DNA of 55,533 bases from a virus (IMGVR_UViG_3300008448_000102:1-55533), one strand, 5' to 3'; numbered from the stretch's first letter, positions 626-54,918 are shown. A program made the numbers and translations. Notes: generated from the sequence alone by a model not told the origin.

Positions 626-2233
626 ATGAACACATCGGGTTATTCTCCAAAGGAGTTATACTTTTCACAGGACGCCGTTGGGCGCCTAATTGGTGGCATC
701 ACCAAGATGAGCAACGCCGTCAAGAGTACCTTGGGTCCTCACGGCAACACGGTACTAATCGAGTCCCCGCACCACACGCATGGCATCACGGTAACGAAGG
801 ACGGGGTGACGGTGGCCAAGGCCATTGAGTTGAAGGACCCGGTCGAGAACCTTGCGGTTCAGATGATGAAGGAGGCGGCGGACCGCACGGCGACGTTGGC
901 GGGCGACGGCACGACCACGGCGATTGTGTTAACCGAGGCGTTGGTACGCGAGGGCATGCGGAACATATCGGTGGACATGAACCGCACGGAGGTGCTGCGT
1001 CAGATGGTGGAGTTGAGCGGCAAGGTGGTGGAGAAGTTGAAGCGCAGGAGCAAGAAGGTGTCGGGCGGCATGCTGCACGACGTGGCGACAATCTCGTCCA
1101 ACAACGACAAGGCCATCGGTCAGATAATCTCGGAGGTATATAGGGAGGTTGGACGCAACGGCATTGTTACCGTCGAGCGCAGCCAAACGAGCGAGACCTA
1201 CTCGGAGACCACAAAGGGTCTAAAGGTTGACAGGGGGTACATGTCCCCGCTGTTCATCAACGACCAACGCAAGGACGAGTGTGTCTTCGAGGACACCATG
1301 GTGTTGGTGTGCGACATGGAGATAAGCAACATCCTTCAGATTGAGAATATCCTGAAGCCAATTGTAAGCGAGGGCAAGAAGTTGCTGATTATCTCGCCAT
1401 GCAGCGTGAACGTAATAAACACCTTGGCGGCTAACGTGATGAAGGGCAACATTAAGGTGTGTGCCATTCCGCCGCCCAACTTCGGATACAAGCAGCACGA
1501 GTTGATGCAGGACATCGCCGTGTCGCTTGGGGCCACGTACTTCAGCGAGAAGACGGGCGACGACCTGAGCCTCATCAACTACGGACACTTGGGCCACGCG
1601 GCCAAGGTGATTGTGGGGCGCGACAGCACGGTGATTATCAAGTCGGAGGTTAAGTCAAATCAGGAGACCATCGAGGAGCGCGTCGCTCAGTTGTGGGAGT
1701 CACACGCTTTGGCGAAACGCAAGGCCGACAAGGACTTCATCTTGGAGCGCATTGCTTCATTGACAGGCGGCATCGGCGTCATCTACGTTGGCGGAAATAC
1801 GGACCTCGAGCAGAAGGAACTGTACGACCGGGTTGACGATGCGGTATGCGCGGTGCGGTCGGCATTGGAGGAGGGCATCCTCCCCGGCGCGGGCAAGGCG
1901 CTGTACGAGGTCAGCGTACACTCGCTGATGTCAGGCAACCCGTCCACAGCCGAGCAGGTAGCGGCGGAGATACTTGACGCGGCTATCAAGGTTCCACTGA
2001 TTCAAATCCTTTCCAACGGCGGTTATGACTACCGCGACATTTACACCGACGCGGTCGGCGAGGGCGAGGGCTTCAACCTAAAGACGGGCAAGACGGGAGA
2101 CCTGATTAAGATGGGGGTGATTGACCCGCTGAAGGTCACACGGTCGGCGTTGCAGAACGCGGTGAGCGTGGCGACCACAATCCTAAGTACCAACGCAATT
2201 GTAACAATGGCCCGCTCCTATGAGTCAGCATGA
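626..2233 (+). CDS. groEL: phage chaperonin GroEL (Cpn60)
   Basis: TLGP-G, VTKDGVTVA, AGDGTTTA, ERIASLTGGIGVIYVGG and GVIDPLKVTRSALQNA motifs; no C-terminal GGM repeats. Confidence 0.97.
   Translation: MNTSGYSPKELYFSQDAVGRLIGGITKMSNAVKSTLGPHGNTVLIESPHHTHGITVTKDGVTVAKAIELKDPVENLAVQMMKEAADRTATLAGDGTTTAIVLTEALVREGMRNISVDMNRTEVLRQMVELSGKVVEKLKRRSKKVSGGMLHDVATISSNNDKAIGQIISEVYREVGRNGIVTVERSQTSETYSETTKGLKVDRGYMSPLFINDQRKDECVFEDTMVLVCDMEISNILQIENILKPIVSEGKKLLIISPCSVNVINTLAANVMKGNIKVCAIPPPNFGYKQHELMQDIAVSLGATYFSEKTGDDLSLINYGHLGHAAKVIVGRDSTVIIKSEVKSNQETIEERVAQLWESHALAKRKADKDFILERIASLTGGIGVIYVGGNTDLEQKELYDRVDDAVCAVRSALEEGILPGAGKALYEVSVHSLMSGNPSTAEQVAAEILDAAIKVPLIQILSNGGYDYRDIYTDAVGEGEGFNLKTGKTGDLIKMGVIDPLKVTRSALQNAVSVATTILSTNAIVTMARSYESA
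1281..1296. repeat. dispersed 16-bp palindrome copy 1 (GTGTCTTCGAGGACAC)
   Basis: Exact sequence, inside groEL. Confidence 0.9.
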
Positions 2234-2447
2234 CGAGATAATGAAGGCCGACGGCTTTGATGAGGCCATCATTGGGACAGACTACCGCACGGACAGGATA
2301 GTGTACTCAGTCTACAAGTGCGTCAAGATTCTAATGAAGCGAGACCGCATGGCCTTCGACGAGGCCCTTGAGTTTTTAGAGTTCAACACGTTCTCCGCTT
2401 ACGTTGGCGAGGGCACACCCATATTTGTAGACGACATAACGGTATGA
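2220..2447 (+). CDS. conserved phage hypothetical protein (ADGFDEAIIG motif)
   Basis: Overlaps both neighbouring genes; motif typical of small phage proteins. Confidence 0.8.
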   Translation: MSQHDEIMKADGFDEAIIGTDYRTDRIVYSVYKCVKILMKRDRMAFDEALEFLEFNTFSAYVGEGTPIFVDDITV

Positions 2448-2701
2448 AGGCAATAGGCAAATACATTGTAGTCCGTCAGTTGGAGGAGGAGGTGCGGACG
2501 GAGTCCGGCCTGATACTCAGCGGCGAGGACACCAATCAGTTCAGGTACCGCAGGGGTGTGGTAATATGCCCGGGCACCGACGTGAACTGCATCAGTGTCG
2601 GCGACGAGGTGTACTACGATAAGGCGCACAGTTTCACTATGCTAATAGGCGAGGAGCATCACACCATCATTCTTGAGCGGGACGTTGTTGTTGTCGCTTG
2701 A
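2444..2701 (+). CDS. groES: co-chaperonin GroES (Cpn10)
   Basis: Mobile loop TESGLIL, G.VI..G, VGDEVYY and ILERDV motifs; close to groEL. Confidence 0.92.
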   Translation: MKAIGKYIVVRQLEEEVRTESGLILSGEDTNQFRYRRGVVICPGTDVNCISVGDEVYYDKAHSFTMLIGEEHHTIILERDVVVVA

Positions 2702-3140
2702 GTCGCTCGGCTTCGGCAATCTCGTTCATCTCGTCGATTAGTTTCCGGTAGACCTTGTCGCTATAACGATAGGTGCGCTCGCCCAACTTCAGTCGGGTGA
2801 TGTAGTGCTGCTTGCGTGGTATGGCAGGGAACGGCACCGAGTGGCTAAGTTTGTCATAGATGAAGTCAACGACCTGAGCGGCCTTGAAGGAGATTTGGTA
2901 TAGGGTCCTTTGGTTCCCCGTCCTTGGCCTGAACACCGTTATCCACCCATCCCTAAGAAGCCGCTTAAACCGCTTGCTGTCCCAATGAAGGACGGACTCA
3001 AACTTTTCAAATCGCTCCCTACTGAAGTAGTTCTCATCGTAGAGGTACAGGAGGACGTCGAGGTCGGCCTCGCTTAGGTCCCACTTTCTTTTTGCATATT
3101 GGCGGACCACACGCCAATACTTTAGATAATTAGATTTCAT
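2667..3140 (-). CDS. putative winged-helix (MarR-like) DNA-binding protein
   Basis: LSEADLDVLLYLY...RLLRDGWI...LYQIS pattern; has its own -7 box on the - strand. Confidence 0.6.
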   Translation of the reverse strand: MKSNYLKYWRVVRQYAKRKWDLSEADLDVLLYLYDENYFSRERFEKFESVLHWDSKRFKRLLRDGWITVFRPRTGNQRTLYQISFKAAQVVDFIYDKLSHSVPFPAIPRKQHYITRLKLGERTYRYSDKVYRKLIDEMNEIAEAERLKRQQQRPAQE

Positions 3141-3144
3141 TTTA

Positions 3145-3162
3145 TACTTTTGAGCAAAGTTA
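3145..3162. promoter_or_regulatory. closely spaced, oppositely oriented -7 boxes
   Basis: TACTTTTG (+, 3145-3152) and TAACTTTG (-, 3155-3162) between divergent ORFs. Confidence 0.5.
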
Positions 3163-3169
3163 ACCTATC

Positions 3170-3409
3170 ATGCCCGAGCAAACTAATTCAAAGGAGTCCA
3201 CGCCAAAGAAGGACGAGGACGTCGCGTTTCGCAACGAGTCGATTGCCACCATCCGTGGGTTAGTTCACGAGAACAAGAAACTACGCGAGGCGATGTCGGC
3301 ATCGGCAAAGCAGCGCAGGTCAACGGTATCACAGCGTCAGTCTTCTGCCTCACGCATTCAGGGATTGCAAACGCTTAAAAATACTTTGGGCACCCCGTCC
3401 AAGGCTTAA
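3170..3409 (+). CDS. hypothetical protein
   Basis: ORF downstream of a -7 box. Confidence 0.65.
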   Translation: MPEQTNSKESTPKKDEDVAFRNESIATIRGLVHENKKLREAMSASAKQRRSTVSQRQSSASRIQGLQTLKNTLGTPSKA

Positions 3410-3424
3410 CCAAAAATAAGTAAA

Positions 3425-3532
3425 ATGAAAAAGACCCCAATGAAGACCGCCATCAAAACAATGGCTGCAAAGAAGGTTGCCACCAAGATGGCTCCAAAAA
3501 AGAAGGGCATGGTTCAAAAGAAGATGTACTAA
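3425..3532 (+). CDS. 35-aa Lys/Met-rich basic peptide (not in ORF track)
   Basis: MKKTPMKTAIKTMAAKKVATKMAPKKKGMVQKKMY; A-rich leader; fills the intergenic gap. Confidence 0.65.
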   Translation: MKKTPMKTAIKTMAAKKVATKMAPKKKGMVQKKMY

Positions 3533-3538
3533 TCTTCA

Positions 3539-3691
3539 ATGCCCAAGTCTAACAAGATTTGTCCTGCGGGAATTAAGTGGGCGAAGGCTACCTTTGCCCG
3601 CTACCCGTCGGCCTATGCAAACATGGCGGCGAGTAAATACTGCAAGGACCCTAACTACGGAAAATCAAAAACATCAAAAAGAAAAAAATGA
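3539..3691 (+). CDS. 50-aa basic protein with YPSAYAN motif (not in ORF track)
   Basis: MPKSNKICPAGIKWAKATFARYPSAYANMAASKYCKDPNYGKSKTSKRKK; ATGA overlap with the next gene. Confidence 0.8.
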   Translation: MPKSNKICPAGIKWAKATFARYPSAYANMAASKYCKDPNYGKSKTSKRKK

Positions 3692-3870
3692 CAGACGTAA
3701 AATCTTGGATTCAGTCCCGAACCATTTGGGCTATCCTGTTGGTGCTTGCACCCCTTCTGACCAAACTCGTTGGCTACGACATCGAGGCCACCATGGCCGA
3801 CATCCTTACAATTGCGGGCGCCGTCGGCGCAATCTATTTCCGCTTTACAGCCACGGCTGCACTGAAGTAA
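3688..3870 (+). CDS. small two-TM membrane protein (holin-like)
   Basis: KSWIQSRTIW followed by two hydrophobic segments. Confidence 0.7.
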   Translation: MTDVKSWIQSRTIWAILLVLAPLLTKLVGYDIEATMADILTIAGAVGAIYFRFTATAALK

Positions 3871-4127
3871 TGACGGGAGAACTGAGGAAGTGGAGGGAGG
3901 AGAAGTGGGTCCGGATTGGAACGGACGGCTCAATTAAGGGTCCGTGCGGTACAAGTAAGGACACGCGCAATCCCGACAGATGCTTACCTTTGGGCAAGGC
4001 TAAGAGCCTGTCACGGGCTGACCGTGCGGCTACTGCCAAGAAGAAGAAGTCCGAGGGTGGCAGCAAAACTCAGTTTGTTAGCAACACACCAAAAGCAAAG
4101 GTCACATCTAAATACACAAAGCGATGA
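3870..4127 (+). CDS. basic conserved phage protein (LRKWREEKW...CG...CLP)
   Basis: TAATG coupling puts the start at 3870; the upstream extension in the track is an artefact. Confidence 0.8.
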   Translation: MTGELRKWREEKWVRIGTDGSIKGPCGTSKDTRNPDRCLPLGKAKSLSRADRAATAKKKKSEGGSKTQFVSNTPKAKVTSKYTKR

Positions 4128-6893: not shown

Positions 6894-6999
6894 GCCCAAG
6901 GCGAAGCGCAACAATAAGGGCGTACATTCCAAGAAGGGGTCGAGTAAATTAAAGACGAGCAAGAATTACAAGAAGGAGTACAAAGGTCAGGGTCGATGA
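6856..6999 (+). CDS. 47-aa basic protein ending YKGQGR (not in ORF track)
   Basis: MAKQKTTSDRAFKPKAKRNNKGVHSKKGSSKLKTSKNYKKEYKGQGR; ATGA overlap with the endolysin. Confidence 0.75.
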   Translation: MAKQKTTSDRAFKPKAKRNNKGVHSKKGSSKLKTSKNYKKEYKGQGR

Positions 7000-10635: not shown

Positions 10636-12862
10636 TGAACTATATGTTTCGATTAGGGGTTTCATCCCCACTGCTGTACTAAACAGGAAGAACAAGAGTA
10701 GGTCTTGGGAGTACGGGTATAATGCGGAACATGACATGGTCGTCATTTCAAAGACGGGCCAAGTTGGAGAGGTCGTAAACATATCCGGCCTAAACATAGC
10801 ACTGCCATTGGAACCAACAAAGTGTCCTCAAAGACACTCCAAACCCGAGGAGCAGTATTGGGAACGCAGTGAGTTACCCAAGGAATTGCTAAAGATTCAG
10901 TCCATCTTTCATTGGAATGAGATGCCGGGCGACTTTAAGAACGCTTGGGTGGACTACATAGAGCAGGAGTTCGATTACCGAGAGCAGGGCTATTGGTTTA
11001 TGAACAACGGGGTCCCAACTTATATTACGGGCTCCCACTACATGTACCTTCAGTGGTCAAGTATAGACGTAGGCTACCCCGACTACCGTGAGGCGAACAG
11101 GATTTTCTTTCTATTTTGGGAGGCATGCCGTGCAGACCCAAGGTGTTTTGGTATGATATACCTGAAGATTCGTCGTTCGGGCTTTTCATTCATGGCATCA
11201 TCCGAGTGCGTTAATATCGGAACGCTTGCAAAAGACTCGAGGGTCGGCATACTATCAAAGACGGGGGCCGACGCTAAGAAGATGTTCACCGACAAGGTGG
11301 TTCCAATTAACAGTAAGTTACCATTCTTCTTCCGCCCAATCATGGATGGGATGGATAAGCCTAAAACAGAGTTGGCGTTCAGGGTTCCCGCCTCTAAAAT
11401 CACCAAGAAGAACATGTACGAGGTGAGCGGGGATGACATCATGGGGTTGGACACCACCATAGATTGGAAGAACACAGAGGAGAACTCCTATGACGGAGAG
11501 AAACTATTGTTCTTGGCACACGACGAAAGCGGAAAGTGGGTTAGGCCAAACAACATTCTTAATAATTGGCGTGTAACCAAGACGTGTTTGCGCTTGGGAA
11601 GCAAGATTATAGGTAAGTGCATGATGGGGTCTACCTCAAATGCCCTCAGTAAGGGTGGCGATAACTTCAAGTCCCTGTATGAGGACTCGAATGTATCCTA
11701 TCGAAATGCCAACGGTCAGACAAAGAGTGGCATGTATGGCCTGTTCATACCTATGGAGTGGAACATGGAGGGCTTCATCGACCTATATGGCATGCCTGTG
11801 CTTCGTAAGCCTGAGAAGAGGGTACGCGGAGTGGACGGTGGATGGATAGAAAACGGTGCTATTGACTATTGGGATGCCGAGGTTGACTCGCTAAAGAACG
11901 ACTCGGACGCCCTGAATGAATACTACCGTCAGTTTCCGAGGACAACATCGCATGCTTTTAGGGATGAGAGCAAGCAGTCGCTGTTCAACCTAACCAAAAT
12001 CTACCAACAGATTGACTACAACGACTCCGTCATCAAGGAACACTACCTCACAAGGGGCTCATTCCATTGGAAGGACGGTATAAAGGACACTCAGGTCATT
12101 TGGATGCCCGACAAAAGGGGCAGGTTCCTCATATCTTGGTTCCCAAAACGGGAACTTCAGAACAGGGTCATTGAAAAGAACGGCATTAAGTACCCCGGCA
12201 ACGACCACCTTGGGTCTTTTGGGTGTGACTCCTACGATATATCGGCTGTTGTTGGTGGCAGGGGGTCAAATGGGTCACTGCATGGCATGACTAAGTACCA
12301 CATGGACGACGGCCCGGTCAATGAGTTCTTCTTGGAGTACATTGCCCGCCCTCAAACGGCTGAAATCTTCTTTGAAGAGGTGCTGATGGCCTGTGTTTTC
12401 TTCGGGATGCCTATCTTAGTGGAGAATAATAAGCCGAGGCTGTTATATCACTTCAAGAACAGGGGGTACAGGGGGTTCTGCATGAACCGACCTGACCGAG
12501 AGTTCACTAAATTGTCAAAAACTGAGCGTGAACTTGGAGGAATACCCAACTCTTCCGAGGAAGTTAAGCAAGCACACGCCTCAGCAATCGAATCCTATAT
12601 TGAGAAGTACATTGGGTACGACACGACGGGCACATACCGTGAGCCTGACGTGATTGGGACGATGCCTTTCACCCGAACATTGGAGGATTGGGCAAAGTTT
12701 GACATAAACGACAGGACAAAGTTCGATGCCTGTATAAGTTCAGGGTTGGCTGTTATGGCAAACCAAAAACATCTGTACCAACCCGAGAAAAAACAGACAA
12801 AAATTAGCATTAACTTTGCAAGATATATCAATGATGGAATATCAAGTAAACTGATTAGATGA
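10613..12862 (+). CDS. terL: terminase large subunit
   Basis: Walker A-like KIRRSGFS, Walker B LAHDE, coupling motif GST, nuclease GCDSYD and FDA; TTG start uncertain. Confidence 0.92.
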   Translation: MRKEGQDNELYVSIRGFIPTAVLNRKNKSRSWEYGYNAEHDMVVISKTGQVGEVVNISGLNIALPLEPTKCPQRHSKPEEQYWERSELPKELLKIQSIFHWNEMPGDFKNAWVDYIEQEFDYREQGYWFMNNGVPTYITGSHYMYLQWSSIDVGYPDYREANRIFFLFWEACRADPRCFGMIYLKIRRSGFSFMASSECVNIGTLAKDSRVGILSKTGADAKKMFTDKVVPINSKLPFFFRPIMDGMDKPKTELAFRVPASKITKKNMYEVSGDDIMGLDTTIDWKNTEENSYDGEKLLFLAHDESGKWVRPNNILNNWRVTKTCLRLGSKIIGKCMMGSTSNALSKGGDNFKSLYEDSNVSYRNANGQTKSGMYGLFIPMEWNMEGFIDLYGMPVLRKPEKRVRGVDGGWIENGAIDYWDAEVDSLKNDSDALNEYYRQFPRTTSHAFRDESKQSLFNLTKIYQQIDYNDSVIKEHYLTRGSFHWKDGIKDTQVIWMPDKRGRFLISWFPKRELQNRVIEKNGIKYPGNDHLGSFGCDSYDISAVVGGRGSNGSLHGMTKYHMDDGPVNEFFLEYIARPQTAEIFFEEVLMACVFFGMPILVENNKPRLLYHFKNRGYRGFCMNRPDREFTKLSKTERELGGIPNSSEEVKQAHASAIESYIEKYIGYDTTGTYREPDVIGTMPFTRTLEDWAKFDINDRTKFDACISSGLAVMANQKHLYQPEKKQTKISINFARYINDGISSKLIR
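10822..10837. repeat. 16-bp palindrome copy 2 (GTGTCCTCAAAGACAC)
   Basis: Variant copy inside terL. Confidence 0.8.
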
Positions 12863-17870: not shown

Positions 17871-17916
17871 GAATGGTCAGTGGGGGGTGTCTTCGAGGAC
17901 ACTCCCCCAACCATTC
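17871..17916. terminator. long hairpin after the capsid gene (terminator/stabiliser)
   Basis: GAATGGT..GGGGG-GTGTC-loop-GACAC-T-CCCCC-A-ACCATTC, followed by an A run rather than a T run. Confidence 0.55.
17887..17902. repeat. 16-bp palindrome copy 3
   Basis: Exact GTGTCTTCGAGGACAC, intergenic. Confidence 0.9.
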
Positions 17917-34000: not shown

Positions 34001-37000
34001 CCTCAAGAAGTTACCCAAGAAGGTCAAGCCCAAGAAGGGGTAGTGTCTTCGAGGACACTCGAAGAGCAGGTGTCCGCCCTCGAGCAGATGATGACCGAGG
34101 AGGAGACCAATGACTTGATTGATGAGTTTGCATTGGCGGTGGACACCGTAGATGACGCACAGGCTGCTCTGTCCCGTGGCGACCTTGTCTATGTATTCGA
34201 TGAGACCACCGAGGCACCGACCTTGGTATCGGACGCCACCGTTCTTGCGGGGTATACACCCGACCGTATCGCCGTGGTTCCAAGGGAGAACTCCCCTATG
34301 GCACAGCAGCCGCAAGCGCAGCCACAGATGTCAGCCGTTGAGTTCATAATGGGTGGCATCGCCCCAACAGAGAATGTGGTGATTGGCTCCAACAAGGCCC
34401 AACTTGATTCGGTTAGGGCGCAGACAACTGACGCCACTAAGCGTCGTGTGTTGGATATGGTTGACAGCGGAGTGAAGGTACTCAAGGCGTTGTTCCCGAA
34501 TGTTGACATCGCCGTGCATACCACAGCCGAGTCTTACAATCAGGCTATGCGAAACCTTGGATATGGGACCGACTCCAAGGGGCGATTCTCCACAGTTTTG
34601 GATGCCGACGGAAAGGTTGCAGGTGGCCGTATAGATATTGACCTATCGAGTGCTGATGGTGTAACGGTAGCGCACGAGATTGCACACGCCGTGATGCTCA
34701 AGGCTTTCGGTGATAACCCTGCGCTATTCAAGACATTCAGGGGAAAGATTAGCAAGATACTTGCTGACTCTACTGTAAAGAAACTCAATGATTTCGCAGA
34801 CCAATACAACGAGAGCGAGTCGCATGAGGAGTTCTTGGTTCAACTTGCGGGGATGCTTACTGATAACGCTCAGGAGTTGGCACGTGTTGAGCCTACCACC
34901 ATTCAGAAGATTGCCGATGCCATCAACAGCATTGTGTCTACAATCACGGGAGGAAGGTTCGTTCCGTTCAAGGGCACGACCGACGTGAACCAACTCGTTG
35001 ACTTCTTGAATACAATCACGAGGTCTATCCGTGAGGGTGAGTTCTCTGATTTGATGAACCAAATTGAGGCTTACTCTACCGCCACACCAATCCCCGTTTC
35101 CGAGCCTGATAATTTCAACTCAAAGCAGTATAAGTCTAAGGCAAGCATTGGTAAGTATACAATACCAAAGGGGTCAGACCCTATACTAAAAACAGCAAAT
35201 TTACCTGTAAGGTCATTGTCTGACTTAGTAAAGCAGTACGGTGGTCGAGTTGCTATTATCACAAGTGATGCAACAGGTTATGGTGTTGATTCAGATGGAG
35301 CGCCAATCTTAGGTGGATTTGGATTTTGTGTTAATGCAAAGAATAACCAAGACAACATAGGATTTGCAAGTGTCAATGTTGGTACTGTAAGAACAACATA
35401 TACCCTTGCAGAAAAGGCTTATGGTAAGGGGAAGACGTTAGTCTTGGTAATGATACAGCCACCCCATACTACAATAAATAATTCTTATGGGGCCAAGTAT
35501 ATATTGAGAGGTCTTGTGGACTTAGCCAAAAAGTCTAAAAAAGATTTTGAGTCCGCAAAGGGTGGCATGGAAGACTTCATTAAAAAGTCAAAGGCTATTC
35601 AAAAAGAATTTAAGTCAGAGGATGGTAAGGCGAGAGCAAGTCAAAAAGAACTCATAAAGTTTATAGATAGCATAAACTCAAAAACAAACATTGACAGGGC
35701 GGTTCAGGACTTCTTGGCAATGACCACATTTACCATAAGAAAAGAATTGGGTCTTGGTATTCTGTTAGAAAGAGGAGATGTACGTATTTCTAAGGGTACA
35801 AACCCTGCTAAAGTAGCATTCAACGGGTTAGGATATAATATATTCAACTTCCTCAAGGAGTATGGAGACTCATCTATATTAGATGATAATATCATACTTG
35901 ATAATAAGGGTGGCCTTTTGGTCGGTGGATTTGAGTTAGATGTTTTGCCTAAAGAGCAAAGAGAAAAACTTATTCTTGATACTCAAAGCAAAGGGATAAA
36001 TCATCCTCTGTTTAATGCTAAACTCCCCGGAACAAATCACTTTGTATTAGATGGCTTGTATGATGTGCAGGAAAACTTTGGAAAGTATGCAAAGCCGGAC
36101 ACAATAATCTTATTAGAAAAAGAAATAGTAGATGCTTTAGTTAGAAAGTATTACCCAACCGATGAATACTATAACGCTGATGCCAAAAAAAGTTTTAATG
36201 CTCAAAGAAAGAAGGGTGTAGCGGAAAAGGATATACAGAGAGAGTATAAAGACTTAACGGCTGCTATCAAAAGTGAGTTTAAGTATAAATATCTTACAGG
36301 GATAAAGGGTGCATTAGCACCGAAAGAACCAAAACTCATAGCAAAAGTTTCCAAGGGGGAAGGATTTGTACCTAAAGAAGGTGCTGAAACTGAATTGGCT
36401 TCGGCTGCATTTACAGCAATCGGGAAATACGAAAAGGCTGACGCCAAGGATAAACCAAAACTAAAGTCCAAAGCGCAGGTAGCCGTTCATAAGGACACAG
36501 GCTTTGTGCCTGTTGGTTTTTGGGTCGAGCAACTCAAGGGAAAGACGGCATACCTTGATGAGGTAATTAAGCATGTATTAAAAGCACGTGAGGAACTCAA
36601 GGAGGGAAAGGTAAGGGAAAGAAAAGTAGTCAAGGCATATCTTATCACAATAGGCTCTGTACTTGCAAGAGGAGGTACTTACTCCGAATGGAAGAAGAAA
36701 ACAAATCAGGAGGTGAGCGATGTCTTCTTAGAGAAGGTGAATGGTAAGGACCACCTAAGACCTGAAGGGGTATCTGCCGCTTATCTTATCACTCCTGATG
36801 GAGAAAAATTAGTTGATGACATCATAAACGGAACAGCCACATTCGAGCAGATAAGGAAGATGTTTGAATATGTAGGCTTTGGTCTTGAAAACAAAAGGAC
36901 AAACTATGTTCTTGAAACCATGAAGAATGATGGCTTTAAGGCCATGACTGACTTATTCAACAAGAACAAGGGTTCTGACTTTAATGAACTATACAAGGGA

Positions 37001-41904: not shown

Positions 41905-42440
41905 TACTTGTTCAGGATTGCGTTCACTCGGCGGTACATCTCCTCCTCGTCGCCAACCCTTACTCGTTCGCTTAGGAGGTCTAATATGCGCTCAAACCGC
42001 TTATACTTTTTGAGCGACATGCGAAGATACTCCTTCTCTGATACAAGATTATCAACCATAACCGTCAGGTTTTCAACACGCTTGACCATCTGTGACTGCT
42101 TGGTCATTGGTACGATTGGCTCCCTGCCCCTAACAAATGCGTCCTTGCACTCCATGTACTTATTGAAAAGCGGTACGGATTGCTCGAGCCAATCGGACAC
42201 ATTCCTGTTGTAGTGTATGATTGTCGAGTGGTTCTTGTTTAGGTACTTACCGATAGTGGTTATACTATGGCCTCGGTCGGATAGTATCTTCGAGAACACC
42301 ATCCTCGCCTCAACAATGGATTGATACCTGCGCTTGTTCATTAGGTCTGTGTTGAACACCTTGTCAACAATCCTCCTTAGTTCCTCCCTTTCCTGTCTTG
42401 CTTTCTCTATCTCCTCGATAGACCTCTGATTTAATTCCAT
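41904..42440 (-). CDS. DnaA C-terminal (domain IV) HTH-like protein
   Basis: RRYQSIVEARMV...SITTIGKYLNKNHSTIIH; start at 42440 after the leader CTCAAATCAC. Confidence 0.7.
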   Translation of the reverse strand: MELNQRSIEEIEKARQEREELRRIVDKVFNTDLMNKRRYQSIVEARMVFSKILSDRGHSITTIGKYLNKNHSTIIHYNRNVSDWLEQSVPLFNKYMECKDAFVRGREPIVPMTKQSQMVKRVENLTVMVDNLVSEKEYLRMSLKKYKRFERILDLLSERVRVGDEEEMYRRVNAILNK

Positions 42441-43307: not shown

Positions 43308-44745
43308 CTTTGAAGTGTGCTACGGTGTAGTCTTTCTTTTTGGTTACGGCTTTGTAGATGTCTCGCTCAATGCCACCCTTTGAGAACACCCAATACACAT
43401 TGTTGTGCGTCCTATCTCGTGTGGTCATCCTGTCCCTACTCTGCCAATAACTCGTTGCACTGAAGTCAATGTTGTAGTAAACCAAGCAGTCGGCCTGACG
43501 CAAGGATATACCCTCGCGCCCCGAAACTATCTGCAAGGCGATGTGCTTATCGGTGTCCTCGAAGACACTGAGTTCGGTGGTCAACTCGTCGCCGAACACC
43601 TGCTCGAGTGCGTTCAGTTCCTCCTTGAACTTATAGAAGATGCCAATCTTCTTGCCATTGAAGTGTTCCCGTATGAACTCGGCCTTGCTTGTGTCGAGTA
43701 CCATCGAGTTGCCGCTCTCGAACTTGATTGTCCCCGAGCATAACTGATGTACCTTCATCATTAACTTGACGGGTGTGTCAGCCAAGATGGTCTCCTCCTT
43801 ACCCTCAACCACCAAGTCCCTCTTCAGTTTCTCGATGAGTGCGTAGGTTGTAGGCTTTAGTTCCACATCCAATACATGCTCGTCAATCTTGACGTTGAAC
43901 CCCGCCTGACTCTGCGTGTAGTTGATGGTGTATGGCCGCATTACCTCGAGGATTGAATCGCTACCGCCCGAGTAGTCCCGAATCATCAGCCCGTTTATCT
44001 TCTTGTCACGAACCTTCACATACTTGTGACAGAACTTATAGAAGTTGCTGAACTCACGGAATGGATTGTTTGGTATGCCGTACACCTGATGATACATCTG
44101 AGAGTACGACTCGGGCGTTGGTGTCCCCGACATGAGTACGACAAGGGGGTTGCTCTTCTTGATAATCTCCCTCACCGCCACGGCCCTGCCGCTCGGCTTA
44201 GGGAAGGCACCCATGCTGTGTGCCTCGTCTACCACCACCATGTCCCAACGAATAGACTCGTCGATGGTGTGTAGGCTCTCGTAGTTTATGACATGAAGAT
44301 GTAGGTCGGGTCTAAGTGTTGCGTAGTCCGCCTCGATTGAGCCGATGGCCTTCTTCTTTGTGATAAACAGGACACTCTTCATGTTCAGTTCCTGCGCTAT
44401 GCCGAGGCTCGTCAGCGTCTTGCCCGTCCTCACCTCCATTGCGAGGTACAGGAAGCCGTGCTGCCGAAGGATGTCAGACCCACGCATGATGATGTCGTGT
44501 TGATAGTCACGGAATGAGAAGCCGTTCTCCTGCTCATGCAGCATCTTGTAATACTCACAAGACTTGAGAATGCGCTCCTCTACCTCCTCATCTCCTCTAT
44601 ACTTTCTTGCCGCCTGTGATGTAGCCGACTTGCCCCGACCCACCTTCACATCCTTGGTTTGGCTTATGACCTTGTATAGTGACTCGCACCGCTTCCACAT
44701 CTCGAGGTTTGAATATGCAGGTATTCGTTCCAATATGTCCGTCAT
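43276..44745 (-). CDS. SF2 (SNF2-like) helicase
   Basis: FRDYQ, RTGKT, VDEAH, SGTP, GREGISL and QSRDR motifs. Confidence 0.9.
   Translation of the reverse strand: MTDILERIPAYSNLEMWKRCESLYKVISQTKDVKVGRGKSATSQAARKYRGDEEVEERILKSCEYYKMLHEQENGFSFRDYQHDIIMRGSDILRQHGFLYLAMEVRTGKTLTSLGIAQELNMKSVLFITKKKAIGSIEADYATLRPDLHLHVINYESLHTIDESIRWDMVVVDEAHSMGAFPKPSGRAVAVREIIKKSNPLVVLMSGTPTPESYSQMYHQVYGIPNNPFREFSNFYKFCHKYVKVRDKKINGLMIRDYSGGSDSILEVMRPYTINYTQSQAGFNVKIDEHVLDVELKPTTYALIEKLKRDLVVEGKEETILADTPVKLMMKVHQLCSGTIKFESGNSMVLDTSKAEFIREHFNGKKIGIFYKFKEELNALEQVFGDELTTELSVFEDTDKHIALQIVSGREGISLRQADCLVYYNIDFSATSYWQSRDRMTTRDRTHNNVYWVFSKGGIERDIYKAVTKKKDYTVAHFKDGLHKNPKED
43553..43568. repeat. 16-bp palindrome copy 5 (GTGTCCTCGAAGACAC)
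   Basis: Reverse complement of the main form, inside the helicase gene. Confidence 0.9.
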
Positions 44746-48110: not shown

Positions 48111-48126
48111 GTGTCTTCGAGGACAC
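48111..48126. repeat. 16-bp palindrome copy 6
   Basis: Exact GTGTCTTCGAGGACAC at the stop of the 48126-48602 ORF. Confidence 0.9.
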
Positions 48127-48801: not shown

Positions 48802-49061
48802 CAGTCGAAGTCCTCTATTTTCTCCTGAGCCAAGATGCTAAGGAGGAGAATCTCGTATGGTGTCAGGATGCCATCAGAGTTTGAGTATGCGTTGTCGAGC
48901 ATGGCCTGAATGCTGATGTCCCACGGCAACTTGTCGAGCCCGTCGGTGTCGATAAGGCTGTGCTTTACGAAATGGTCTGTCAGTTCAAATGTCCCCTTGT
49001 CGGTTTGGATTACGTACCCGTTCTCAATTGATGGGTGCTTGTGAAGTGTTGCTTGTGCCAT
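48801..49061 (-). CDS. hypothetical protein
   Basis: Coupled ORF. Confidence 0.7.
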   Translation of the reverse strand: MAQATLHKHPSIENGYVIQTDKGTFELTDHFVKHSLIDTDGLDKLPWDISIQAMLDNAYSNSDGILTPYEILLLSILAQEKIEDFD

Positions 49062-49075
49062 TGGTTTGGTGTGTG

Positions 49076-50439: not shown

Positions 50440-50735
50440 TGTACGTTGGTTTGGATTCTATTGATAACACGGATGTAGTCTCTGTCTTCACGCATACGTC
50501 GCTCGGTCTGCTTGATTCCGTAGATAACAGACGAGTGCCCTATGTCGTATCCGTTCTCCCCCATGTATGACATGATGGATGAGACATTGATAGGACGCTT
50601 GCTGCACAGGTAGTACAGCATGTGTCGGGCGTTGGTGTAGTTTCGGGACTTAGTCTTGATGAACAGCAACTCCCTTGGGAAGCCGAACTCGTCGGCCACC
50701 TTGGTTGCGTAGTTGTCGAATATCTCTCTCTTCAT
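50436..50735 (-). CDS. stand-alone DnaA domain IV-like HTH protein
   Basis: VADEFG...L..KTKSR....ARHM.YYL...HSSVIYG pattern. Confidence 0.75.
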   Translation of the reverse strand: MKREIFDNYATKVADEFGFPRELLFIKTKSRNYTNARHMLYYLCSKRPINVSSIMSYMGENGYDIGHSSVIYGIKQTERRMREDRDYIRVINRIQTNVQ

Positions 50736-50755
50736 TTGATTGGATTGTGGGTCTG

Positions 50756-50763
50756 CAAAGTTA
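50756..50763 (-). promoter_or_regulatory. -7 promoter box for the recombination operon
   Basis: TAACTTTG on the - strand, then the leader CAATCCAATCAA-ATG. Confidence 0.65.
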
Positions 50764-50774
50764 CGAGAATAAGT

Positions 50775-51095
50775 TTAATTCTCGTTCTTTTTGTTAATAA
50801 AATTATCAGCATGTCTTTGCCACAGCACAGACTCAACCGTCTCAAGTTTTCCGCTACGTATCTTGGTGATAATCTCTGATGGTTCTGCCTCGTCGTATAT
50901 CTCGAGAAGGAACGAGTTGTCCTTGAGACATTGGATAAAGAAGTCGCCTTGGTATATGAGTACATCTGTGCAGTCACTATGCAGTTTCTGCTTTGGCTTG
51001 TGCTTTCGCTCGAAGTCGGGTCGGTACACGAACATGCCTGTTTTTTGGAAGTCTTGTAGTGTCATTTGCTCTTTATGTTTTTGATTGTCATCCAT
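50775..51095 (-). CDS. hypothetical protein
   Basis: Coupled ORF. Confidence 0.7.
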   Translation of the reverse strand: MDDNQKHKEQMTLQDFQKTGMFVYRPDFERKHKPKQKLHSDCTDVLIYQGDFFIQCLKDNSFLLEIYDEAEPSEIITKIRSGKLETVESVLWQRHADNFINKKNEN

Positions 51096-51486
51096 AGATT
51101 ACCTCCCCGAGTACCATGTATTGGAATAGAATGTCTGCTGAGTTTGCGTCCCCCTCTCCGTTGACCCACTCCGTCAACGCCCAAGCCTCCCCTCCATCTG
51201 CGAGTTTCTGAAGTCGAGACTCGATGGTGTGTGTGCTTAGGACTCCGAGCAGTTCGTCTTGGTTCTCGATGTCGTTTATTTCAATGTCAATGCCGTGGTC
51301 AAACACCGCCTTGAACAGGGCTATACTTAGGCATCTCTCATCCTTTTTGGATACCGCCTTGCGTATCTTGAGTACCTCGCTGTCGGGTAGCCAATACCAA
51401 TAGTTACTGCCTCCCTCGAGTGCTGTGACAAGTACATCCTCGATGCACTGCCTTTCAATCTTCGTTGTGATTTTGATTTCTGTCAT
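51088..51486 (-). CDS. conserved phage hypothetical protein (TALEGGSNYW...DA..AD..FQ...GE.IYG)
   Basis: Recognisable early-gene motif. Confidence 0.8.
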   Translation of the reverse strand: MTEIKITTKIERQCIEDVLVTALEGGSNYWYWLPDSEVLKIRKAVSKKDERCLSIALFKAVFDHGIDIEINDIENQDELLGVLSTHTIESRLQKLADGGEAWALTEWVNGEGDANSADILFQYMVLGEVIYG

Positions 51487-51667
51487 TGTTGGTTTGTATT
51501 TGATTGCTTGGTTTTCCGTTTGACCAAAAGTAGTCGCACCTCCCCTCGTCCTTGAGCGGAGGGTCTACGAAGTATGACTGCCTGTACTCGTTGGGTATTG
51601 CTGTGTGTCGGTGGCACTGCTCCTTCACGGGGCATCCTATGCCATTACACATTGCGATGTCTGCCAT
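51455..51667 (-). CDS. small Cys-rich protein (MADIAMC...CP....C.R...C.YFW)
   Basis: Start at 51667; four-Cys pattern. Confidence 0.7.
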   Translation of the reverse strand: MADIAMCNGIGCPVKEQCHRHTAIPNEYRQSYFVDPPLKDEGRCDYFWSNGKPSNQIQTNNDRNQNHNED

Positions 51668-51914
51668 AGGTTTCGTTGTAGTATTGTTCTGCTTGGTCAT
51701 TAGTCCACTGAGTATGTGGATGTTTATCAAATACCCGTTGCCCTTCAATGTGAGCATCTATTATCTGCTCCTTCTCCATCTGCTTGGCTTGTTCAATAAG
51801 TCTTAATATCTCTAACTCACAATTTCTTTGACTAATTCTACGTAATGATAATTGTAGATTAAGTTCTAAAACTTTAGGCATCAACCATTCAACTGCGGTT
51901 TGTTTCTTTTCCAT
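51645..51914 (-). CDS. KQTAVEWL-family hypothetical protein
   Basis: KQTAVEWL...QAKQMEKEQIIDA...EQYYNETY pattern, recalled from Bacteroidota phages. Confidence 0.8.
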   Translation of the reverse strand: MEKKQTAVEWLMPKVLELNLQLSLRRISQRNCELEILRLIEQAKQMEKEQIIDAHIEGQRVFDKHPHTQWTNDQAEQYYNETYGRHRNV

Positions 51915-51979
51915 TTTTAGTTGTTAGTTTTTAATTGTTAGTGTGTCTGATTTAATGTTTGTAGTCAGGACAGGCCATC

Positions 51980-51995
51980 GTGTCCTCGAGGACAC
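51980..51995. repeat. 16-bp palindrome copy 7 (perfect, GTGTCCTCGAGGACAC)
   Basis: Intergenic. Confidence 0.9.
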
Positions 51996-52006
51996 CCTTA
52001 CTTGCG

Positions 52007-53080
52007 TCAGTATTTCAATACCTCCGACTCGCAGAACCACTCGTCACACGAACCGCAATGGTAGTCCATGAACCCGTCGTGCTTTAGTGTGTGGTAGCAG
52101 TTGACGCACATCGCCTCCTGCTCCATCCTGCTTTTGAGTTGCTCGTGTTCGTACATTAACTCGTCGGTGTAGGTGTGCGATGCGGCACTCCTTGCCTCCT
52201 GCTGATACGCCGACACCCACGACCCCTTGAATCCCACGCTCTGATTGTATGACTTGTGGAGCCTCTCTCCACTTGGTATCTCCGTTCCGTTGAAGTACAC
52301 CCAACAATTCTTGACCTTGCCATCAATCAGTATTGGAATCCTCTTGCGTGTGTACCAATTCGGGTGACCCTCGAGTGCGTCCAAGTCTGCCATTACCTCG
52401 TTGCTTACCTTGAACACATCAACGCTGACCCATTCACCTACACCCTTCTTGTCGATGAGGTACGGAAGACCCTTGATGATAAGCGGATACTTGTCGAATG
52501 TCTCACCATTGCCGATGAACTTAGAGTCGGATAGGAACCTGTTGTAGTTCCCGTTGCCACGCTTGAGTGTGCCGTACACGGCCACCAAGTTCGGCTCGAA
52601 CACGTTATCCTTCGAGTACCACACGCCGTCATGCTGTGTCCAAAGGTGCTTGTTGTAGATTTGGTATGAGCGGTTGCGTGTGTTGATGGTGACGAACCTG
52701 CATGGGTATTTCTCAAGTTCGTTGCTCCACTTACGGCGTGGTACATCTCCGATGCTGTTAGCCAACACCTTGGTGTCGCTCTCCTCCGCGTTGCCGAGCA
52801 TTGGAATTGTTCCGTTCATCATAAGCCACTCGCTCTTGTTGCTACCGCATTGGAATGGGTGCGTGTTCTCTATGCCAATCTTGCCAATTGTGGCGTAGCG
52901 GAAGTGTGCAATGAATGGCCTGTCCGTGAGCAGAACCTTGTACTCCTTGGACTTGTGGTATGTGACCTCGAACGTGTCGAGCCACATGATGCCGAGTCCG
53001 TGCGGGTTCATGCGTGATGATGTCTTTGCTACCTCTGTTGATAGTTTCTTTCCTTCCTTCTTGATGATGATGATACACAT
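52007..53080 (-). CDS. class II glutamine amidotransferase fused to a gamma-glutamylcyclotransferase (AIG2-like) domain and a Zn ribbon
   Basis: N-terminal Cys2, NPHG.G, HFRYAT.G...NTHPF, NG, SDT; then VYGTLK.G..N and LD.LEG.P..Y.R; C-terminal CxxC...CxxC. Confidence 0.85.
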   Translation of the reverse strand: MCIIIIKKEGKKLSTEVAKTSSRMNPHGLGIMWLDTFEVTYHKSKEYKVLLTDRPFIAHFRYATIGKIGIENTHPFQCGSNKSEWLMMNGTIPMLGNAEESDTKVLANSIGDVPRRKWSNELEKYPCRFVTINTRNRSYQIYNKHLWTQHDGVWYSKDNVFEPNLVAVYGTLKRGNGNYNRFLSDSKFIGNGETFDKYPLIIKGLPYLIDKKGVGEWVSVDVFKVSNEVMADLDALEGHPNWYTRKRIPILIDGKVKNCWVYFNGTEIPSGERLHKSYNQSVGFKGSWVSAYQQEARSAASHTYTDELMYEHEQLKSRMEQEAMCVNCYHTLKHDGFMDYHCGSCDEWFCESEVLKY

Positions 53081-53104
53081 AGTTTTGATTTGAGTTTATG
53101 CAGA

Positions 53105-53120
53105 GTGTCTTTGAAGACAC
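53105..53120. repeat. 16-bp palindrome copy 8 (GTGTCTTTGAAGACAC)
   Basis: Intergenic, 25 nt upstream of the GATase start. Confidence 0.85.
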
Positions 53121-53148
53121 AGACTGCTGATTAGGATTGTAGTGGGGG

Positions 53149-53361
53149 TTACTTTTTTGACATATCAATGTCGTTGAACATGTCGAGTAGGTCGGTCAGT
53201 ATTGACCAACCCTCCTCGATGCTCCGCTCCTCGAGTGTGCGTCTGATAAGGAAGGCTACCGCCTCCACCCTTTCGTCCGACCAATCGGGTCTGATTGACT
53301 TAATGTCGAGTAGTGACCACCTGATGGTGGCGAATACGTTGCTGTCTTGTTCTTCTTTCAT
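53149..53361 (-). CDS. hypothetical protein
   Basis: ORF in the early cluster. Confidence 0.7.
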   Translation of the reverse strand: MKEEQDSNVFATIRWSLLDIKSIRPDWSDERVEAVAFLIRRTLEERSIEEGWSILTDLLDMFNDIDMSKK

Positions 53362-53364
53362 GGC

Positions 53365-53655
53365 TTAGTCTATTGTGTCGTCTGTTACATAGTCAGGTGG
53401 ATTGATGGCTGTCACGCTGTACCCTGCGTTCCTTTCTTTGAAGTCCAAGGTGTAGGTGTTGGTCTGCATGGACACCACGTCAAACTCCTTGATGAAGTCG
53501 CAGATGTAGTCGATGATGTTCCTTCGCTCTCGCTTGTTGTCCCTCATGTACACGAGGGTCTCATCTTCTACGTATACCTTGAATACCTCATGCACTGCGG
53601 AGGTGTATGCGTCGATGTAGTGTTCGACCTTGAATGTTATCTTCTTGTCTATCAT
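53365..53655 (-). CDS. hypothetical protein
   Basis: ATGA-coupled start MIDKK at 53655. Confidence 0.65.
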   Translation of the reverse strand: MIDKKITFKVEHYIDAYTSAVHEVFKVYVEDETLVYMRDNKRERRNIIDYICDFIKEFDVVSMQTNTYTLDFKERNAGYSVTAINPPDYVTDDTID

Positions 53656-53861
53656 AGCCCGTAGTAGTGTTCGTCCCAAGTTATTGTCTCTTGTCCGTAG
53701 TCTACCTCCACGTTCCACCCGTCCTCCATGATGGCGTATAGTACGCTCCGTGGCTGTGACCTGAGCAGGTACATGAACGCGTCATGCTCACTACTGCACT
53801 CGAACTTGCACACGTTGTATTGGTAGACCTTAACTGCGATTGGTTTCTTTATCGTCCTCAT
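53652..53861 (-). CDS. hypothetical protein
   Basis: Coupled ORF. Confidence 0.65.
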   Translation of the reverse strand: MRTIKKPIAVKVYQYNVCKFECSSEHDAFMYLLRSQPRSVLYAIMEDGWNVEVDYGQETITWDEHYYGL

Positions 53862-53862
53862 G

Positions 53863-54102
53863 TTACTTGCCTCCGTTTAGATAGTGTTTGTACTTGGACT
53901 TGTTGCGGCTCTTGCGTACAGCGTAACGCTTGCCGTCGATGGTCTCATAGATAGGCCATTCCCTGCCATTCCTATCTGTGAAATAGGACGGGGTCTTACG
54001 CACACGCTTACGCTTGCGCTTGGTTGACTTGCTTGATGAGATTACGTTGACAGCGCCCGTGGCCTCGTCAACCGAGATGGTGATTGTGATTACTTTCTTC
54101 AT
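53863..54102 (-). CDS. basic hypothetical protein
   Basis: Leader CTCAAATCAA-ATG. Confidence 0.7.
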   Translation of the reverse strand: MKKVITITISVDEATGAVNVISSSKSTKRKRKRVRKTPSYFTDRNGREWPIYETIDGKRYAVRKSRNKSKYKHYLNGGK

Positions 54103-54122
54103 TTGATTTGAGTGTTTTTTGA

Positions 54123-54296
54123 TTAAAGTCTGTCTTCAATTTCTGATAGCATCTTGCTCATCACTGCGATGGATGTGACGCATAGTATCAAGCATAGTAA
54201 CATCTCGCCCCCCGTGGTTGCGAGTTTGTGGAATGCCATGAGTGATGCGAGTGCGGTGACTGAACTCACCCCTGCGATTATCTTGTGCTTCCTCAT
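54123..54296 (-). CDS. small two-TM membrane protein
   Basis: Start MRKHK at 54296 (ATGA overlap); two hydrophobic helices. Confidence 0.6.
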   Translation of the reverse strand: MRKHKIIAGVSSVTALASLMAFHKLATTGGEMLLCLILCVTSIAVMSKMLSEIEDRL

Positions 54297-54613
54297 CGTG
54301 ATATGCCTGATAGTTTGAATGCCCACTTCCAAATGCGTGACGCGTTGGCGTTCACTTGCTCGCGGCAGAGGTGTACGCACTCGATGGTCTCGGTTGATGT
54401 GCGGTAGTCGGTGTCGTGCGAGTATTCCACCCACTCGTTCGGTGTGCCACATGATGGGGACGATGATGGCCTACCACCACGCAGTAGTTCAACTAATTCA
54501 CGGAGCGTGACCTCCTCCCTCTCTGCGAGGAAGCCCGTCTCTTCGTACTCCCCGTGTTCTGCCGACTCGGGGGAGATGGTCGCATAGGTGCGACTGATGA
54601 GGATTGTTTTCAT
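54293..54613 (-). CDS. hypothetical protein (TY...SPESAE.G...E.GF)
   Basis: Start at 54613 after CTCAAATCAA; -7 box at 54635-54642. Confidence 0.75.
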   Translation of the reverse strand: MKTILISRTYATISPESAEHGEYEETGFLAEREEVTLRELVELLRGGRPSSSPSCGTPNEWVEYSHDTDYRTSTETIECVHLCREQVNANASRIWKWAFKLSGISR

Positions 54614-54634
54614 TTGATTTGAGTTATTATTGTA

Positions 54635-54642
54635 CAAAGATA
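54635..54642 (-). promoter_or_regulatory. -7 promoter box
   Basis: TATCTTTG on the - strand. Confidence 0.6.
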
Positions 54643-54651
54643 CGACGGAAA

Positions 54652-54918
54652 TTAGACATCTCCAAGTGTTGTTGATAAGTTGTTTTCTTCGAGAACCAAC
54701 TCGCCCCTGAAGAAAATTAAATGCTCGTAGACCATTCGGATGCCGTGGTATTTCTCAACCACAACGATGCTACCGAGCGTCCTACTCAGACGCTTTGCCT
54801 TGTGGTAGGCTGTCGCTTTAGACCTGATGACGTGCAGTACCACGGGTTCTCCATGCTCGAACACCGCCACCAAGTACGGGTTCTGTGTCTTCGAGGACAC
54901 CTTATCTGCTGCTTCCAT
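54652..54918 (-). CDS. hypothetical protein
   Basis: Likely start MEAAD at 54918. Confidence 0.55.
   Translation of the reverse strand: MEAADKVSSKTQNPYLVAVFEHGEPVVLHVIRSKATAYHKAKRLSRTLGSIVVVEKYHGIRMVYEHLIFFRGELVLEENNLSTTLGDV
54885..54900. repeat. 16-bp palindrome copy 9
   Basis: Exact GTGTCTTCGAGGACAC. Confidence 0.9.

Follow-up and report, generated by a model that had tools for sequence, protein, structure and literature searches.

The 55,533-nt stretch IMGVR_UViG_3300008448_000102 (hereafter the window, meaning the whole stretch of DNA that was analyzed) carries nine copies of a 16-nt palindrome, GTGTCYTYRARGACAC, a form of the motif GTGTC-N6-GACAC that recurs in related phages, a widespread family of uncultured freshwater phages that probably infect Bacteroidota. 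As judged from sequence comparison, this palindrome is real, ancient within a widespread freshwater phage group, and under strong selection at the nucleotide level. As to its role, we favor the reading that it is a stem-loop in the sense-strand RNA, which punctuates phage transcripts behind stop codons and whose tip is read by a putative specific factor, a proposal that we hold with about as much confidence as doubt. In such a stem-loop, GUGUC would pair with GACAC around a loop of 4–6 nt, often above a further, site-specific lower stem, and when located just behind a stop codon it would form the 3′-terminal hairpin of the message, where it may end or protect the upstream mRNA and separate neighboring cistrons. 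In relatives of the window, one of three elements could generate a 3′ end beside the hairpin: a U-tract, through intrinsic termination; a type III hammerhead ribozyme, cutting a few bases downstream; or a tRNA-like minihelix, presumably drawing RNase P or Z. The window itself would keep bare hairpins, together with one long-stemmed hairpin after the capsid gene.

All nine copies given in the preliminary description of the window were recovered as exact matches (Table 1), while none was found in 100 dinucleotide-preserving shuffles of the window, and the chance expectation of about 2e-4 quoted there is of the right order. The motif pattern read backwards has no match in the record. Six of the copies are identical (GTGTCTTCGAGGACAC), five on the + strand and one, at 43553, on the − strand, in agreement with the earlier account of one reversed copy. 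Allowing up to 2 mismatches added a single decayed copy at 42284 (GTATCTTCGAGAACAC), compared with 0.03 matches in the shuffles. Five of the nine copies are found at gene borders, each 0–41 nt past a stop. Given some 60 genes in all, about 5% of positions are located no more than 45 nt past a stop, and by this rough estimate the observed share is far above chance. Among these, the copy at 17887 starts 41 nt past the stop codon of the capsid gene (17843–17845), 30 nt ahead of a conserved ATG at 17933, and lies in a 33-nt stretch that folds with −20.7 kcal/mol (ViennaRNA). The other four copies (in groEL, terL, the open reading frame (ORF) of 3493 aa, and the helicase gene) are clearly coding. 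The preliminary description had placed five copies inside genes in different reading frames, which holds in part: the groEL and helicase copies share one codon phase (xGT GTC TTC GAG GAC ACx, encoding VFEDT), so that three phases are found in all, rather than five. Likewise, the spacing does tighten toward the early end, as had been noted, but this merely follows the shortness of the early genes.

To place these copies in context, we compared the window with its relatives. Among GenBank records, the closest is MW202828.1, a circular genome of 60.8 kb that was obtained from a freshwater spring and is syntenic with the window. In it, a different perfect palindrome, GTGTCGTTAACGACAC, occurs 14 times, mostly in successive gaps between small early genes, 3–6 nt past a TAA and 16–39 nt ahead of an ATG, a gap too short for a promoter to fit between motif and start codon. 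In IMG/VR, at least 573 relatives were confirmed among at least 599 matched stretches, and 22 full records were analyzed (G numbers below). The motif common to the family is GTGTC-N6-GACAC, with 6–21 copies per genome in related complete genomes and a center that varies by lineage, so that the records can be typed by CGTTAACG, CTTCAAAG, CYTCGARG, or none. It is present in 28 of 80 IMG/VR portal-gene loci (80–85% protein identity), mostly in terL and after the capsid gene. Whole records reached through portal loci held 13, 8, 0, 0, and 0 copies, and the eighteen records obtained by a motif scan, a choice biased to carriers, held 1–21; two records with the window’s own variant have 12 and 10. 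One record with that variant (G025) is collinear with the window at ~75–80% identity, and keeps the groEL, terL, post-capsid, giant-ORF, and helicase copies, as well as the copy upstream of a 109-aa ORF.

The preliminary description had raised the possibility that relatives keep the motif at non-homologous positions, and they indeed keep it both at homologous positions and at new ones. The helicase position is kept in more records than any other (16, among them G017, which has no further copy), while the motif is found at the terL position in 14 complete records and at the groEL position in seven. The copy upstream of the 109-aa ORF homolog is also found in G001, G006, and G025, and the copy at the 53105 position, before the ATG of a gene encoding an amidotransferase-cyclotransferase fusion (GATase-GGACT), in MW202828, G001, G002, and G013; MW202828 also has a copy 4 nt past its GATase-GGACT homolog. 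A search of related phages and of host chromosomes had also been proposed. The at least 120 stretches listed from bacterial genomes showed no enrichment, with mostly single copies scattered over several phyla. Among these bacterial matches, just one stood out as carrying multiple copies, WTJX01000555.1 (L297, L344), a 56,458-bp contig with at least 5 copies that was binned with a Cytophagales metagenome-assembled genome. This contig is probably a phage of the window’s family, binned with or infecting a Cytophagales bacterium, and gives a weak hint of the host. In the literature on cultured relatives, we found nothing on the motif.

Two further records show repeats of other kinds. The 41-kb partial record G019 (L268, ~15000–20000, and L269; 68% complete) has 19 copies, several of which have identical flanks (e.g., ATCGGAGA..TCTTCACA) and are spaced 300–400 nt apart, like tandem-duplicated small cassettes ending in a hairpin. 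The motif-free relative G004 contains 51-nt coding tandem repeats (CCAAAGAAAGAGTT...) inside a ~6-kb gene (26404–27997; L095, ~6400–8000), which probably encodes a repetitive fiber-like protein. Its most repeated word, CCAAAGAAAGAG, was considered as an analog of the palindrome and rejected, as it is part of this 51-nt repeat.

Selection on the nucleic acid rather than on the protein, as proposed in the preliminary description, is borne out at three coding positions, where the motif bases are fixed while neighboring codons drift. In the helicase gene, aGT GTC TTy GAr GAC AC is fixed, including its synonymous positions, while flanking synonymous sites drift; in the motif-free records G003 and G004, the same position encodes SIFDS or SIFES with other bases. 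For terL, 57 of the 80 portal loci cover the position and read gap-free. The motif is present with identical arm bases in 16 of these, amid varying flanking codons, and the other 41 encode unrelated residues (CFSRS, VYKRS, etc.), showing that this stretch of the protein is itself variable. In groEL, G006 encodes the same CVFEDT without the motif. Across the 22 records there are ~240 sites with perfect arms, whose ten arm bases are virtually invariant, and only 7 sites that combine a single arm mismatch with a family-type center, so recognition looks near all-or-none. These 7 variants are too few to separate G-U-compatible from A-C-compatible mismatches. From the invariance of the arms, we infer a very specific trans-acting reader of the hairpin tip, which the coding copies may serve as well.

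For the RNA reading, the copies of 20 records (18 of them carriers) were sorted with a crude ORF caller at a strand-call confidence of at least 0.8, giving an approximate division into 98 intergenic and 79 “coding” copies. An ORF stop is located no more than 150 nt upstream of 83 of the 98 intergenic copies, and at less than 20 nt for 56 of these 83. Lower stems of at least 4 extra pairs were found on the sense strand at 33 of the 98 intergenic copies, compared with 3 on the antisense strand and 2 when only Watson-Crick pairs were counted, and the extended sites contain 38 G-U pairs versus 9 A-C. Pairing on the sense strand only, and through G-U, points to RNA; neither in a duplex site nor in a cruciform would the two strands differ in this way. 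In addition, the covariation score of the 98-sequence alignment was 0.171, versus 0.112 ± 0.010 for shuffled alignments; none of 500 shuffles reached the observed value, and slid registers scored lower. In relatives, 25 copies are followed by a T-run on one strand only, as in the U-tract of a terminator, including the post-capsid site in most of these genomes; the window has no extended stem followed by such a tract.

Other copies in relatives are coupled to ribozymes. Just downstream of 24 of them, a regular expression detected a hammerhead core, and the full Rfam Hammerhead_3 model gave 43.5 bits (E 1.5e-7) and 38 bits (E 5.9e-6), below its gathering score of 48.5 because stem III is short (only 4–5 bp). 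At gathering scores, Rfam gave no match on 138 kb of relatives, and the hammerheads appear only with E-value thresholds. If the ribozyme cuts after GUC, the upstream RNA would end in the palindrome hairpin. A type I hammerhead in G006 has the palindrome as the apical part of its stem III, and the minimum-energy fold gives its three-stem junction; this assignment is based on manual parsing and the fold, as Rfam gave no match at E ≤ 1. Some hammerheads in G008 and G015 are preceded by other stable hairpins in place of the palindrome, and the presence of unrelated hairpins there suggests that a hairpin is needed at the position before the hammerhead. It has been proposed that hammerheads beside phage genes serve to divide long transcripts into gene-length mRNAs (PMC3088659), and the alignments in that work may already include members of this phage family.

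Type III hammerheads were seen between early genes in G012 (L245, 17592–17646) and G006 (L237, 18361–18415), and also in G001, G002, G007, G008, G011, G013, G014, G015, and G018. A genome often has several of these, at intervals of ~1 kb, and behind each come an A-rich leader and an ATG. Type I hammerheads with stem I GGUUAA/UUAACC form a second set, found in G002, G006, and G011.

A third group of copies adjoins tRNA-like minihelices between early genes, consisting of an acceptor stem and a T arm (GGTTCGAnTCC), some with a CCA end (Table 1). ARAGORN called no tRNA at the minihelices of G009 (57126–58300), G010, and G013; the remaining loci were identified from the T-arm pattern alone. Judging by their sequences, hammerheads and minihelices together look like a tRNA-style punctuation of phage operons.

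Table 1. Copies of the palindrome in the window and tRNA-like minihelices between early genes of related records.
Feature	Record	Position	Strand	Context
Copy 1, GTGTCTTCGAGGACAC	Window	1281..1296	+	Inside groEL-like gene (626-2233), codons ~219-224, CVFEDT
Copy 2, GTGTCCTCAAAGACAC	Window	10822..10837	+	Inside terL (10613-12862), codons ~70-75, variable protein stretch
Copy 3	Window	17880..17908 (core 17887-17902)	+	Tip of 11-bp stem GGGGG..UCCCC, between capsid gene and next gene
Copy 4	Window	34043..34058	+	Inside 3493-aa ORF (31013-41494), ~residue 1011; common to G013 and G025
Decayed copy, GTATCTTCGAGAACAC	Window	42284..42299	+	Two mismatches break two stem pairs; inside DnaA domain IV helix-turn-helix gene 41904-42509
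Copy 5	Window	43553..43568	-	Inside SNF2/ResIII helicase gene (43276-44745), residues ~393-398, SVFEDT
Copy 6	Window	48111..48126	-	Overlaps TAG stop of ORF 48126-48602; upstream of conserved 109-aa ORF 47739-48068
Copy 7, perfect palindrome GTGTCCTCGAGGACAC	Window	51980..51995	-	11 nt past stop of GATase-GGACT gene (52007-53080)
Copy 8	Window	53105..53120	-	24 nt before GATase-GGACT ATG (53080), 28 nt past stop of ORF 53149-53361
Copy 9	Window	54885..54900	-	1 nt past TAA of ORF 54902-55360; within first 12 codons of next ORF (ATG 54918)
tRNA-like minihelices	G001	near 55781, 56309		
tRNA-like minihelices	G006	near 55735, 55403		
tRNA-like minihelices	G009	57126-58300		
tRNA-like minihelices	G010	1645-3916		
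tRNA-like minihelix	G013	55164		
tRNA-like minihelix	G016	55919		
tRNA-like minihelices	G025	479, 1380		
tRNA-like minihelices	MW202828	609, 676		

Several observations weigh against a stem-loop in RNA. Within the window, the bare 16-mer folds weakly (−4.5 to −7.6 kcal/mol), and only the 17887 copy among the nine has an extended stem, behind which no U-tract is present, the next bases being AACCAUUCAAAAAAA. No hammerhead, no Rfam match at E ≤ 1, and no tRNA (ARAGORN) was found in the window either. At positions 6 and 11, sense-strand pairing is not kept in the window’s subgroup, with 4 U-G versus 3 C-A combinations, though a clear terminator in G024 tolerates C-A there. The preference for a UCAA over a UUGA loop (CA:TG) is strong only for ribozyme-coupled copies (18:2), which may share descent, and is weak for copies with a T-run (13:9) and for other intergenic copies (24:16); the overall ratio of 82:32 is inflated by homologous coding copies. 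Furthermore, the positions best conserved across the family, namely those in the helicase gene, terL, and groEL, are all three coding, where a 3′-end hairpin has no obvious use, and the four coding copies of the window remain unexplained by a role at transcript ends. A look through sequencing runs for the stretch 45600–55533 listed no RNA data set containing it. Finally, strands and genes were assigned with a crude in-house ORF caller.

We weighed these points against explanations in which the palindrome acts as DNA. The preliminary description had likened its distribution to that of architectural sites of the parS, matS, Noc, or SlmA type. This comparison finds no support: the copies track gene borders, form the tips of terminators and of hairpins beside hammerheads, and carry sense-only G-U stems, and their placement close behind stops (5 of 9 copies in the window, 56 of 83 in relatives) is not one set by chromosome geometry. 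To our knowledge, the palindrome matches neither parS, matS, nor other architectural consensus sites. No member of the ParB, MatP, Noc, or SlmA families was found in Pfam scans of 19 window proteins or PHROG scans of 8, in which the small ORFs were partly covered. A double-stranded site for a dimeric phage regulator, such as the MarR-like protein encoded at 2667–3140, seems to us rather unlikely. The palindrome would then be a dispersed operator or roadblock, similar to the stoperators of mycobacteriophages, and the hairpins beside terminators and ribozymes would have been built on it secondarily. The half-sites GTGTC and GACAC are centered ~11 bp apart, one helical turn, which would suit a helix-turn-helix dimer; position 6 varies as Y independently in both halves; coding and orientation-free copies would be natural; and a MarR-like protein is found in every record. 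In Cluster A mycobacteriophages, repressor sites are known that are dispersed over the genome and halt elongation (PMC9283540, PMC6550527). On the other hand, the sense-only G-U lower stems at one third of the intergenic copies are needless for a duplex site, and the copies stay close to stop codons. Operator families are usually less sharp than the ~240 perfect-arm sites and 7 one-mismatch variants seen here. The winged-helix protein itself (157 aa, − strand), which is encoded by the lone reverse gene among + strand genes with no copy of the palindrome near it, is kept in 19 of 19 full records, but it is about equally diverged in the records without a copy (G003 and G004) or with a single one (G017), and its putative recognition helix is conserved in G003 and G004 (in an alignment without G017). 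It has no Pfam match, but matches a PHROG annotated as “transcriptional regulator” (E 1.2e-4), and its AlphaFold model (mean predicted local distance difference test score, pLDDT, of 79.6) gave weak best PDB matches to MarR-family dimers (E 1.1e-3, template-modeling scores of 0.44–0.48). From this model the protein appears to be MarR-like, and it remains a candidate binder for a DNA site. The 19 window proteins scanned with Pfam showed neither an integrase nor a lysogeny module.

Two other readings keep the DNA in view in different ways. The palindromes at gene borders could be linkers at which co-infecting relatives recombine and swap cassettes, any RNA role being secondary. We consider this improbable as the primary function, but it is compatible with a role of the palindrome in transcript punctuation. 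Copies in the window border genes without a homolog in 19 relatives (48126–49061, 53149–55360) beside conserved genes; in eight comparisons, homology around the GATase-GGACT gene ends 3–13 nt beyond the copy at 53105; and in G019, small genes follow one another in arrays, each closing with one common hairpin and identical flanks. A length of 16 bp is, however, very short for homologous exchange. No jump in identity was seen at the helicase copies (120 genome pairs) or terL copies (91), in genomes too diverged for a fair test, and the fixed coding copies and sense-strand lower stems would be left unexplained. A precedent for such swapping has been proposed in the PeSL (promoter-early stem-loop) elements of T4-type phages (PMC2839356, PMC4122927). 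Least probable of all, in our view, is a hairpin or cruciform of single-stranded DNA that serves replication, priming, or recombination, with the primase-helicase (45037–47517) or the PDDEXK nucleases, or that forms an N4-type promoter for a virion RNA polymerase residing in the 3493-aa protein. Strand-specific lower stems would also fit one DNA strand, and because transcription and presumed replication proceed in the same direction, the strand bias cannot separate the two; moreover, the most conserved copy is located in a replication gene, the pentamers that T7 primase recognizes include GTGTC, and a giant virion protein of N4-like length is present. The copies are nonetheless tied to stop codons, U-tracts, and ribozymes, which are features of transcripts, and PDDEXK_14 is missing from G009 and G014, with 21 and 13 copies. 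As for a hairpin promoter, the palindrome reads the same both ways, most copies in the late region are not upstream of genes, and searches with Pfam, PHROGs, PDB sequences, and DxDxD-type motifs gave no sign of a polymerase in the giant protein; PF00940 had no match in 5 records, with control genomes silent too. Restriction-site, CRISPR-repeat mimic, CsrA-site, and tyrosine-recombinase core-site readings were dropped for poor fit.

The preliminary description had named the winged-helix protein and the two DnaA domain IV proteins as candidate binders, which finds no support in their distribution, as they are either present in motif-poor records or absent from carriers, though they may still be binders. 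Like the winged-helix protein, the 99-aa DnaA domain IV protein is also found in G003, G004, and G017, about equally diverged, while the 201-aa protein has no match in five motif-bearing records (G011, G013, G012, G016, and the 68%-complete G019). Three further candidates were rejected on the same grounds. GATase-GGACT is found in 16 of 16 motif-rich and 0 of 3 motif-poor records, but has no match in G024, which has 12 copies, bringing the count to 16 of 17 motif-rich records; PDDEXK_14 is missing from the two records noted above; and the 109-aa ORF (47739–48068) is present in the motif-free G003. As no window protein tracks the distribution of the motif, a reader, if any, would be universal in the family, fast-evolving, or supplied by the host. 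It could be a new hairpin-specific RNA-binding protein, an endoribonuclease, or a factor that reads the sequence as both DNA and RNA.

By analogy, the closest counterparts among known systems are intercistronic palindromes of the REP type and PeSL cassettes. Repetitive extragenic palindromes and bacterial interspersed mosaic elements (REP/BIME) of enterobacteria stabilize mRNA 3′ ends, probably by shielding the upstream message from 3′ exonucleases, which would set how strongly adjacent genes are expressed relative to one another. They share with the element described here a short, highly repeated palindrome between cistrons just past stops, and transcription into a hairpin, which is proposed here. 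They differ in that our element is phage-borne, has 16 nt rather than 20–40, has invariant arms, and is joined to hammerheads and tRNA-like elements; nor is it strictly extragenic, with copies selected inside groEL, terL, the helicase gene, and the giant ORF. We know of no report of PeSLs inside conserved genes. PeSLs, too, are conserved stem-loops that recur between the small, variable early genes of a lytic phage, and they lie where swappable genes meet, but as described they carry an early promoter (PMC2839356, PMC4122927), for which the 16–39 nt often found here before the next ATG leave no room (Bacteroidota-type promoter boxes were sought by eye). With its coding copies and no attached promoter, the element thus fails the defining features of both REP and PeSL. 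The boxB/nut and coat-protein-operator hairpins, which have known readers, occur once or twice per genome. They resemble the palindrome in length (~15–16 nt) and in the conservation of sequence as well as fold, which implies a specific protein reader, but differ from it in copy number, which is 6–21 per genome here. Stoperators are 13–14 bp long and oriented with transcription. In the accounts of Cluster A mycobacteriophages, they are found as tens of near-identical short sites, mostly at gene borders, with a sequence that varies among phages (PMC9283540, PMC6550527), and are described as asymmetric sites, which in temperate phages a repressor reads as a monomer (PMC9283540); here, a palindrome is found in an apparently lytic phage, with RNA-type lower stems in one third of the copies. 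Finally, the hammerheads that flank phage and prophage genes (PMC3088659) have a counterpart in relatives whose early genes are separated by type III hammerheads with the hairpin immediately before them, in keeping with the proposed division of long transcripts. The window lacks a ribozyme, and ribozyme stems vary far more than the partner hairpin does; a conserved partner hairpin is not mentioned in the hammerhead account of that paper (PMC3088659).

The window is itself a whole IMG/VR virus record, classed as linear, with an estimated completeness of 92%. Its + strand genes (1–41494) include groEL/ES, terL, portal, and capsid genes and ORFs of 1722 and 3493 aa, and its − strand genes (from 41491 to the end) encode the helicase, the primase-helicase, a Sak annealing protein, PDDEXK nucleases, two DnaA domain IV proteins, and many small ORFs. 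The product of the GATase-GGACT gene (52007–53080, −) consists of an N-terminal class II amidotransferase-like domain (starting with MC...) fused to a GGACT/AIG2-like cyclotransferase domain. This gene has a palindrome on both sides in the window, a copy just upstream in several relatives, and one just downstream in MW202828. The 3493-aa ORF (31013–41494, +) gave no informative Pfam or PDB-sequence match, and only its C-terminal 800 residues matched a PHROG, of unknown function; it diverges fast among relatives, with 26–49% identity over parts.

Taken as a whole, the palindrome may represent a system by which a phage family tags its own nucleic acid: a 16-nt tag of ~26–28 bits, recognized near all-or-none, at gene ends and at three fixed sites in essential genes, within a three-way punctuation of operons by hairpin, hammerhead, and minihelix. 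We offer this broader view only tentatively. Inside genes, the motif can be fixed at synonymous sites across phages that are only 65–80% identical, and gene annotation and recoding experiments should reckon with such nucleotide-level selection. If the stem-loop reading is true, it would point to a very specific hairpin reader and hence to a possible tool, because host genomes would rarely contain a 16-nt tag by chance. A concrete, testable context would also be gained for phage hammerheads, which are described as having a role that is still open (PMC3088659). Widespread freshwater phages would then organize their transcripts with interchangeable parts, namely a stem-loop, hammerheads, and tRNA-like minihelices, in a form of phage punctuation comparable to the tRNA punctuation of mitochondria.

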